Shown: positions 3,536 through 4,313 of the stretch, piece by piece | How positions within the stretch are numbered: the stretch's first letter is position 1 | Layout of the letters: each line of letters opens with the position of its first letter | IMG/VR virus record: IMGVR_UViG_2531839668_000009 | DNA length: 21,334 nucleotides | Direction: 5' to 3' (one strand) | DNA from: a virus | Lineage: Duplodnaviria > Heunggongvirae > Uroviricota > Caudoviricetes | Made by a program: the position numbers and the translations under genes | The notes under the pieces: generated by a model | The model's input: the letters and a program-made list of their open reading frames with translations, nothing else | The model's database searches: none | What the model was told of the DNA's origin: nothing

Positions 3536-3850
3536 TTAGCATTTTTTTGACCGCGCGTTTCCGGACGTATTCTGTTCTCCTGTCCCTTTATATCGTCGGA
3601 ATACCCGCCGCTCTTCAAATCCCATTCCCAACTCAGAATGTAGTCTGTTGACCGCTTGTTTTATTTCTGTCAGGTTCATCGGTGAAACCGGAGTCCGGCG
3701 CGCCTTACGCAAACACTCTGCTCGTTTCTGTGCCGCCACTTTTCTTTTCTGGTCATCACTTAGCTGTACCATCACTTTTGCCCATCGTTCAGCTGCTCTC
3801 CGGTACAGTCCTTTTTTCTCCAGACATTCTGCCAGGTGATCATGTAGCAT
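3536..3850 (-). CDS. PerC-family-like small transcriptional regulator (Pch-like)
   Basis: 104 aa, ATG with GGAGG RBS; basic helical protein with the motif LEKKGLYRRAAERWAKVM that I associate with PerC/Pch proteins. Family assignment is from memory only. Confidence 0.45.
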   Translation of the reverse strand: MLHDHLAECLEKKGLYRRAAERWAKVMVQLSDDQKRKVAAQKRAECLRKARRTPVSPMNLTEIKQAVNRLHSELGMGFEERRVFRRYKGTGEQNTSGNARSKKC

Positions 3851-4313
3851 AAGTGACCTCCGATTATCTACAGACTGCTATCCTGAATTTACCTTCCTTT
3901 AATGAAATAACAATAAAAATAAATCACAGAAAAACAACAAAACAACACACAAAAAAACTAAATAATAAACCCAAATAATCACCTTATTTTATTATTTTTT
4001 GAGAGAGCTATTACTGAACAAAAAACGCTGACTATATACTCAAAACCAAACAACTATTCTGCCAATCAGGTATAATGGCAACACAAGGAATTACCGTGTT
4101 TTTGCCTTCTCTGCCCATACAATACGGACATATACTTCATACTCTATTGTAATATTTCCATCCATGCGAACAACTTCATTTATCTGTAAATAATATTCAA
4201 AATATTTATCACAGAAATCGTTTTTGGCCATGAACTGAGCACACTATAAAGTCCGGAACTGACTCTTTGTTAAATTACCTTAACGTTACCAGTAACACCT
4301 TCATAACAAAACA

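Follow-up and report, generated by a model that had tools for sequence, protein, structure and literature searches.

The regulators PerC and PchA/B/C activate transcription of LEE1/ler (PMC4456613; PMC4764244). PerC, the founder of Pfam family PF06069, is encoded in the perABC operon of the EPEC plasmid pEAF. The pch genes have been grouped into three classes (PMC6265319), and pchABC are required for full expression of the LEE. Of these, pchA and pchB are activated by LrhA, and butyrate acts on pchA through Lrp/LeuO (PMC4456613; PMC13012123). Pch counteracts silencing by H-NS/StpA/Hha (PMC4764244), and a prophage-inducing (SOS) antibiotic causes strong induction of the pch genes (PMC6265319). 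At the level of translation, the ribosome binding site (RBS) of pchA is blocked by pairing with its own coding sequence (CDS), and DicF binds the CDS and relieves this block (PMC7769764, PMC7873438, PMC9438474).

The stretch of DNA analysed here (21,334 nt, referred to as the window) is 100% identical to positions 2631308–2652643, reverse strand, of the chromosome of E. coli O157:H16 strain 98-3133 (NZ_CP051001.1). This strain has been reported as an atypical EPEC of ST10 that carries the LEE and lacks both bfpA and stx (PMC11597368). The window represents a degraded lambdoid prophage that resembles Sp4 and is located next to yccA; the features discussed below are collected in Table 1. We consider it highly probable that its pch gene is cargo of the PchA/B/C group, with an AT-rich regulatory region of its own and with translation gated as published for pchA. 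This makes it a member of a known gene family in its usual place, and the current understanding of these regulators is unchanged.

Table 1. Features of the pch locus and related elements of the prophage, with positions in the window.
Feature	Position	Strand	Basis or remark
cos, lambda-type left end	3000..3030	minus	exact 31-nt match; 0/100 shuffles match
ylcI/ynfO-family gene, convergent with pch	3230..3454	plus	Pfam DUF3950, E=1e-19; NCBIfam YlcI_YnfO_N; PGAP
Hairpin resembling a bidirectional intrinsic terminator, A5-GCGAC..GTCGC-T5	3473..3499	both	fold energy
pch, 104-aa PerC-family regulator, PchA/B/C group	3536..3850	minus	ORF with ATG start; Pfam; PGAP
Predicted DicF pairing site, CDS nt 79–105	3746..3772	minus	duplex energy
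Predicted anti-RBS element, CDS nt 85–100, AGCUAAGUGAUGACC	3751..3766	minus	partition-function folding
Shine-Dalgarno GGAGG of pch	3857..3861	minus	read from sequence; 6 nt upstream of ATG
AT-rich upstream region, 463 bp, presumed pch promoter/regulatory region	3851..4313	minus	GC; no credible gene
Proximal candidate sigma70 promoter, TTGTTA-16-TAAATT	3886..3913	minus	PWM 9.2 bits
Distal candidate sigma70 promoter, TTGCCA-17-AATAGT	4053..4081	minus	PWM 9.4 bits; sole consensus-scan site
Further candidate sigma70 promoters	4146–4173 and 4243–4273	minus	PWM scan
Rz spanin gene, last late gene before the pch module	4314..4781	minus	Pfam Phage_lysis, 157.7 bits, E=2e-46
Rz1, 61-aa ORF embedded in Rz	4376–4561	minus	Sakai equivalent annotated lipoprotein precursor
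STnc100 match / tRNA region	8699–8871 and 9645–9891	minus	late-regulatory region
DicF sRNA gene, upstream of dicB	16894..16945	plus	Rfam RF00039, 77 bits (gathering 48)

The pch gene and its relatives

An earlier note on this DNA had assigned a 104-aa gene between Rz and cos to a PerC/Pch-like family. The coordinates given there are exact, and the profile search, which the note had named as the test that could refute its family call, gave a match to PF06069 PerC of 150.1 bits (gathering cutoff 22.6; E=2.2e-44) that covers positions 1–89 of the 90 in the profile. The call is correct and already known: the PGAP name of the product is PerC family transcriptional regulator (WP_001302690.1), and the gene is an ordinary copy of a well-studied prophage gene. 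From its sequence, the open reading frame appears to be a functional copy of pch.

The core of PerC proteins was taken to consist of L/F/W-Y-R-R-A-A, R-W, a single Cys and M-G, in a protein of about 90–105 aa, and the Pch of the window has both this core and this size. The protein contains all residues found to be invariant across 32 diverse PerC members (R17, R18, A19, A20, W23, and C46), as well as all those that are near-invariant in the family (D4, A7, L10, E11, G14, R22, M74, and G75).

Using phmmer, only 84 relatives of Pch could be identified at E≤0.001 among 1.84 billion representatives. A separate profile search returned 223 relatives; the best 120 of these 223 all belong to PF06069, and every one of them with a named source comes from the Enterobacterales. 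A single-protein scan of genome contigs, which picks up close relatives only, gave matches only in E. albertii and in one Escherichia sp. Two proteins with the PerC Pfam domain, from Enterobacter and Citrobacter, carry the NCBI name "ANR family transcriptional regulator." These names hint that PerC overlaps, or has been confused, with the AraC-negative-regulator family, whose members are small helical proteins.

No solved structure of a Pch relative was found when searching by sequence. The AlphaFold model of Pch, made from 74 family members, is of moderate confidence (pLDDT 77.7) and consists of five helices and a disordered tail. Compared with the PDB, the model has no neighbor with E<1 and no recognizable DNA-binding motif, so the molecular mechanism of Pch is structurally unsupported.

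The protein encoded by Sakai ECs_1091 ("transcriptional regulator PchA," prophage Sp4) is also 104 aa long, and 102 of the 104 residues are identical to those of the Pch in the window. The two substitutions are L6V and M58V (window to Sakai). A second O157:H7 paralog encodes a protein that is identical at all 104 positions. The region upstream of pch is 94.6% identical to that of Sakai pchA and 99.6% identical to that of the other O157:H7 paralog. As the upstream region is closer to the other paralog, the allele in the window is of a non-pchA type despite its Sp4 position. Codon 6 of pch (3833–3835) is polymorphic: it encodes Leu (CTG) here, Val (GTG) in Sakai PchA and O111, and Gln (CAG) in A25 and E. 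albertii.

The features of Pch group 1 were found both in the protein, with its 104 aa and near identity to Sakai PchA/B/C, and in its context, a lambdoid prophage in a strain reported as LEE-positive (PMC11597368). PerC belongs to the same family and has the same reported effect on LEE1/ler (PMC4456613), but it is plasmid-borne and encoded in an operon under the control of PerA, whereas the pch gene of the window is a monocistronic prophage gene preceded by an AT-rich region of its own. Since strain 98-3133 is bfpA-negative, we infer that it has neither pEAF nor perABC. It has one pch copy, compared with three in typical EHEC. With a single copy of the pchABC type, and presumably without plasmid PerC, the strain represents a simpler background than three-copy EHEC for dissecting the control of pch.

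The cargo module and its prophage

The earlier note had also described the gene as lying next to cos. It does lie on that side, between Rz and cos, but strict adjacency does not hold: the stop codon of pch is 505 bp from the cohesive end, and the ylcI/ynfO-family gene is located between them. The cos call is based on a match to what we take to be the left-end sequence of lambda, and the 12-nt cohesive end GGGCGGCGACCT is found at 3019–3030. In the interval between the convergent pch and ylcI genes there is a hairpin with predicted energies of −14.7 kcal/mol on the minus strand (z=−3.6 relative to shuffles) and −11.9 kcal/mol on the plus strand (z=−4.1). It was not reported by a simple terminator scan; judged from its predicted fold, it looks like a bidirectional terminator for the two genes.

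The flanks of this region (Rz on one side and ylcI/ynfO-cos-nu1 on the other) are common to prophages without pch, including those of K-12. Such prophages, the K-12 ylcI/ynfO loci among them, display homology only to positions 3000–3364 of the window and to Rz from ∼4324 on. Because this homology is limited to the two flanks, the DNA between ∼3365 and 4323 can be regarded as a cargo unit, located in a slot of variable content that separates the lysis genes from cos. The resulting module of about 950 bp comprises pch, its upstream region and the terminator-like hairpin.

The same variable slot between Rz and cos holds morons in lambdoid phages and prophages, as seen for bor in lambda and borD-ybcV-ybcW in DLP12 of K-12. 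The pch module shares several moron features: it occupies the insertion slot, its base composition is unlike that of its flanks, and it has a predicted terminator hairpin of its own downstream. It differs in that the cargo is a virulence regulator and not a surface protein. The promoter element is only predicted, with two promoter scans that disagree on enrichment.

Of 5426 complete E. coli genomes, 673 contain the upstream region of pch, and these have a median of 3 copies; strain 98-3133 has one. Among 50,697 phage records, the module is present in only two unannotated fragments, and it is therefore known essentially from prophages.

The prophage is inserted at yccA-tusE-yccX, a site identical to that of Sakai Sp4. 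In Sp4, pchA is likewise found between Rz and cos/ylcI, with an AT-rich gap of 463–465 bp. The holin-endolysin-Rz-pchA segment of Sp4 is, however, inverted and bracketed by IS629 and ISEc8, whereas the corresponding segment of the window is collinear. The window prophage also differs from Sp4 in that all head and tail morphogenesis genes have been deleted, with cos left intact. The terminase small subunit (∼2548–2835, minus strand) stops after ∼73 aa, and at a junction at ∼2617 the terminase remnant is fused to tail-fiber C-terminal/collagen-repeat remnants (1779–2672). The Q antiterminator gene, a DUF968 gene and one neighbor (∼10100–10700) are truncated pseudogenes according to PGAP, and activation of the late operon in cis is probably impossible.

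The AT-rich end of the prophage encodes an NleB/SseK arginine glycosyltransferase, a type III effector (137–1117, minus strand; Pfam, 579.6 bits). As the head and tail genes are gone and the nleB end remains, the prophage can be viewed as an element fixed in place that carries genes for a regulator, an effector and an sRNA. The proposal in the earlier note that the prophage contributes regulation as well as an effector is accordingly reasonable, given this nleB gene and a LEE-positive host (PMC11597368). The presence of Pch, a master switch of type III secretion from the LEE, marks the degraded prophage as a contributor to virulence regulation beside its carriage of NleB. An IS66-family element lies immediately outside the window at the nleB end. 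The prophage further has a match to the STnc100 sRNA family (100.8 bits) and three tRNA genes (Ile, Arg, Arg), as in Sakai Sp4.

Predicted translational control by DicF

A translational switch acting between DicF and pchA was reportedly described by Melson and Kendall in 2019. In the window, the GGAGG sequence preceding pch is conserved in every aligned homolog. When the region from −60 to +160 was folded, the Shine-Dalgarno nucleotides were predicted to pair with nt 94–99 of the CDS (P∼0.42). The same RBS/anti-RBS helix is also seen in the minimum free energy (MFE) and centroid structures of a 150-nt fold. The codon-6 region of the window allele (CACCUGG) is predicted to offer an alternative, weak Shine-Dalgarno pairing (P∼0.23). 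With regard to covariation between the RBS and the anti-RBS element, a single C-to-U change in E. albertii would still allow a G-U pair, and Escherichia sp. MOD1 has diverged on both sides; this variation is insufficient to support the helix.

The prophage also encodes DicF, as does Sakai Sp4, where DicF and dicB are found on the same prophage as pchA. A duplex of −28.1 kcal/mol was predicted between nt 1–25 of DicF and nt 79–105 of pch. Apart from the antisense of DicF itself, this is the best site among 14,204 windows of 30 nt on both strands (mean −11.8, sd 3.6). The DicF site is identical in Sakai pchA and in E. albertii, and the RBS, the anti-RBS element and the DicF site are all the same in Sakai Sp4 as in the window.

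These predictions correspond to the published DicF-pchA switch (PMC7769764, PMC7873438, PMC9438474): pairing is predicted between the RBS and the CDS, with DicF predicted to pair across the same CDS element, and no difference was found in a comparison with the switch as it is described in reviews. The RBS-sequestering CDS element and the DicF site of Pch group 1 were thus both found computationally, and the pch mRNA of the window is predicted to keep the published switch. The RBS would be held by nt 85–100 of the CDS, and DicF encoded by the same prophage would free it by pairing across nt 79–105.

The AT-rich upstream region

The earlier note had described about 460 bp of AT-rich DNA without a credible ORF upstream of pch, and this description holds. 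The 463-bp gap has a GC content of 31.5%, below that of the window overall (47.9%) and of the neighboring genes pch (48.6%) and Rz (53%), and its longest ORF is 46 aa. Only 0.8% of the 463-bp segments in the 21 kb are equally AT-rich; besides those starting within ∼35 bp of the gap, all of them are found at the nleB end.

A position weight matrix (PWM) scan found 24 sigma70-like sites of at least 6 bits per kb on the pch strand of the gap, compared with ∼5 per kb across the window (about four-fold). A stricter consensus scan gave 1 site in the gap, where 2.5 were expected from shuffles. The proximal candidate promoter, whose −10 element ends 36 nt before the ATG, falls within the ∼120 bp to which upstream similarity with the E. 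albertii and Escherichia sp. MOD1 homologs is confined. The core promoter of pch is probably located within these proximal ∼120 bp, although the placement of promoters within the gap is a guess at the consensus level.

As for the features of H-NS-silenced DNA, the gap is AT-rich, and the H-NS nucleation motif TCGATAAATT is not enriched in it, with a single hit at 2 mismatches. Judged from base composition alone, binding and silencing of the upstream region by H-NS is plausible. No mapped transcription start, H-NS binding data or regulator footprint for the region was found in the literature searched, the scope of which did not extend to the primary pch papers, and no H-NS data for pch were found in the supplements of PMC4764244.

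In the regulation that we propose, pch would sit as moron-type cargo between Rz and cos of the degraded Sp4-like prophage. The distal part of the gap would be AT-rich DNA of a type to which nucleoid proteins bind, and would be subject to the regulators reported to act upstream of pch (LrhA, Lrp/LeuO, the stringent response). As described in the literature for Pch proteins, the product would bind the LEE1/ler promoter and other horizontally acquired loci occupied by H-NS and lift their silencing, thereby inducing the type III secretion system together with its effectors. By analogy with the described systems, pch may be expected to activate the LEE in strain 98-3133. Transcription from the late promoter might also read through into pch when the Q antiterminator is available. 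Such read-through is possible because pch is co-oriented with the late operon and no terminator follows Rz; as Q is truncated here, it would need Q in trans. Q-dependent read-through could add to the expression of pch, which fits its induction by SOS.

The gap might instead have a product of its own. That it encodes a small protein, from the 46-aa ORF at 4091–4231 on the minus strand, appears extremely improbable. The ORF is intact in 4/4 diverged alleles that were aligned and is called by some gene callers, yet it has no Shine-Dalgarno sequence and no Pfam hit. A search against 5.8 billion proteins matched only the same locus (10 entries, from E. coli and E. albertii), and several of these versions are shortened to 25–31 aa. 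A count by eye gave ∼7 nonsynonymous to 2 synonymous changes, which is close to the neutral expectation, and PGAP has annotated nothing inside the gap in any of the genomes listed. We therefore rejected the ORF as a gene in view of the lacking Shine-Dalgarno sequence, the same-locus relatives and the shortened versions. In EHEC, sRNAs are known to arise from prophage DNA between late genes, and the distal promoter-like sites would yield leaders of 200–400 nt. RNA-level control of pch has also been described (PMC7769764, PMC7873438). A small RNA, or a long structured 5′UTR controlling pch, is nevertheless very unlikely: Rfam searched over 2800–4900 at a permissive threshold gave no match at E≤1 on either strand, no terminator-like site was found within the gap, and in seven overlapping 120-nt windows the folding z-scores compared with shuffles were between −0.9 and +0.5, with a weak −1.9 for the proximal 120 nt. 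Based on the enrichment of sense-strand sigma70-like sites, and on a gap with no Rfam match, excess structure or credible ORF, we infer that 3851–4313 is the promoter and regulatory region of pch.

How much of this DNA acts on pch is a separate question. One reading gives pch no significant promoter of its own, so that it would be expressed mainly as the tail of the late operon (Q-dependent, from pR′ through S-R-Rz) with the gap as a transcribed spacer. In agreement with this, pch is oriented like the holin, endolysin and Rz genes and lies behind Rz without an intervening terminator, and pch genes are among the regulators that respond most strongly to a prophage-inducing antibiotic (PMC6265319). 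We nonetheless find this reading quite unlikely, since pch-dependent LEE activation has been published for uninduced lysogens along with control by LrhA and butyrate/Lrp (PMC4456613; PMC13012123), Q is a truncated pseudogene in the window prophage, and the E. albertii homolog is not located downstream of Rz or the lysis genes. It is possible, though doubtful, that only the proximal ∼120 bp are functional, as core promoter and 5′UTR, with the distal ∼300 bp being inert AT-rich filler derived from a donor. E. albertii (90% aa identity) and Escherichia sp. MOD1 (76%) have only the ∼120 bp upstream of the ATG in common with the window, and the E. albertii copy lies away from Rz. The distal 300 bp are conserved about as well as the synonymous sites of pch (93.7% and 91.4%, respectively, for strain A25; 96% and 99% for Sakai) and thus give no positive conservation evidence for a distal function, and the gap shows no structure, Rfam family or enrichment of the H-NS motif. 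This reading has to be weighed against the distal part being full length in every match (∼1,900 copies from 673 genomes, none of the matches being a deletion variant), the distal location of three of the four best sigma70-like sites, and published reports that LrhA and other upstream factors regulate pchA/pchB (PMC4456613; PMC13012123). We retain the reading of pch as cargo with its own AT-rich regulatory region, and the residual uncertainty on the locus is the role of the distal upstream DNA.

The distal ∼300 bp (∼4010–4313) are found at full length with every pchABC-type copy and are absent from the E. albertii and MOD1 homologs. An undescribed function might lie there. This could be a platform for allele-specific regulators, a distal promoter with a long leader, or a small protein, and we consider such a function rather unlikely. 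If true, an allele-specific platform would explain why pchA and pchB are controlled differently, as has been reported.

The proximal T-rich part of the upstream region changes faster than the distal part. A substitution hot spot was observed at ∼4160–4185, where the window differs from Sakai pchA, O111 and A25 at 8 positions in ∼25 nt, with the rest of the distal stretch being almost identical. The hot spot separates the two types of pch allele, and could be either a recombination patch or an allele-specific regulator site.
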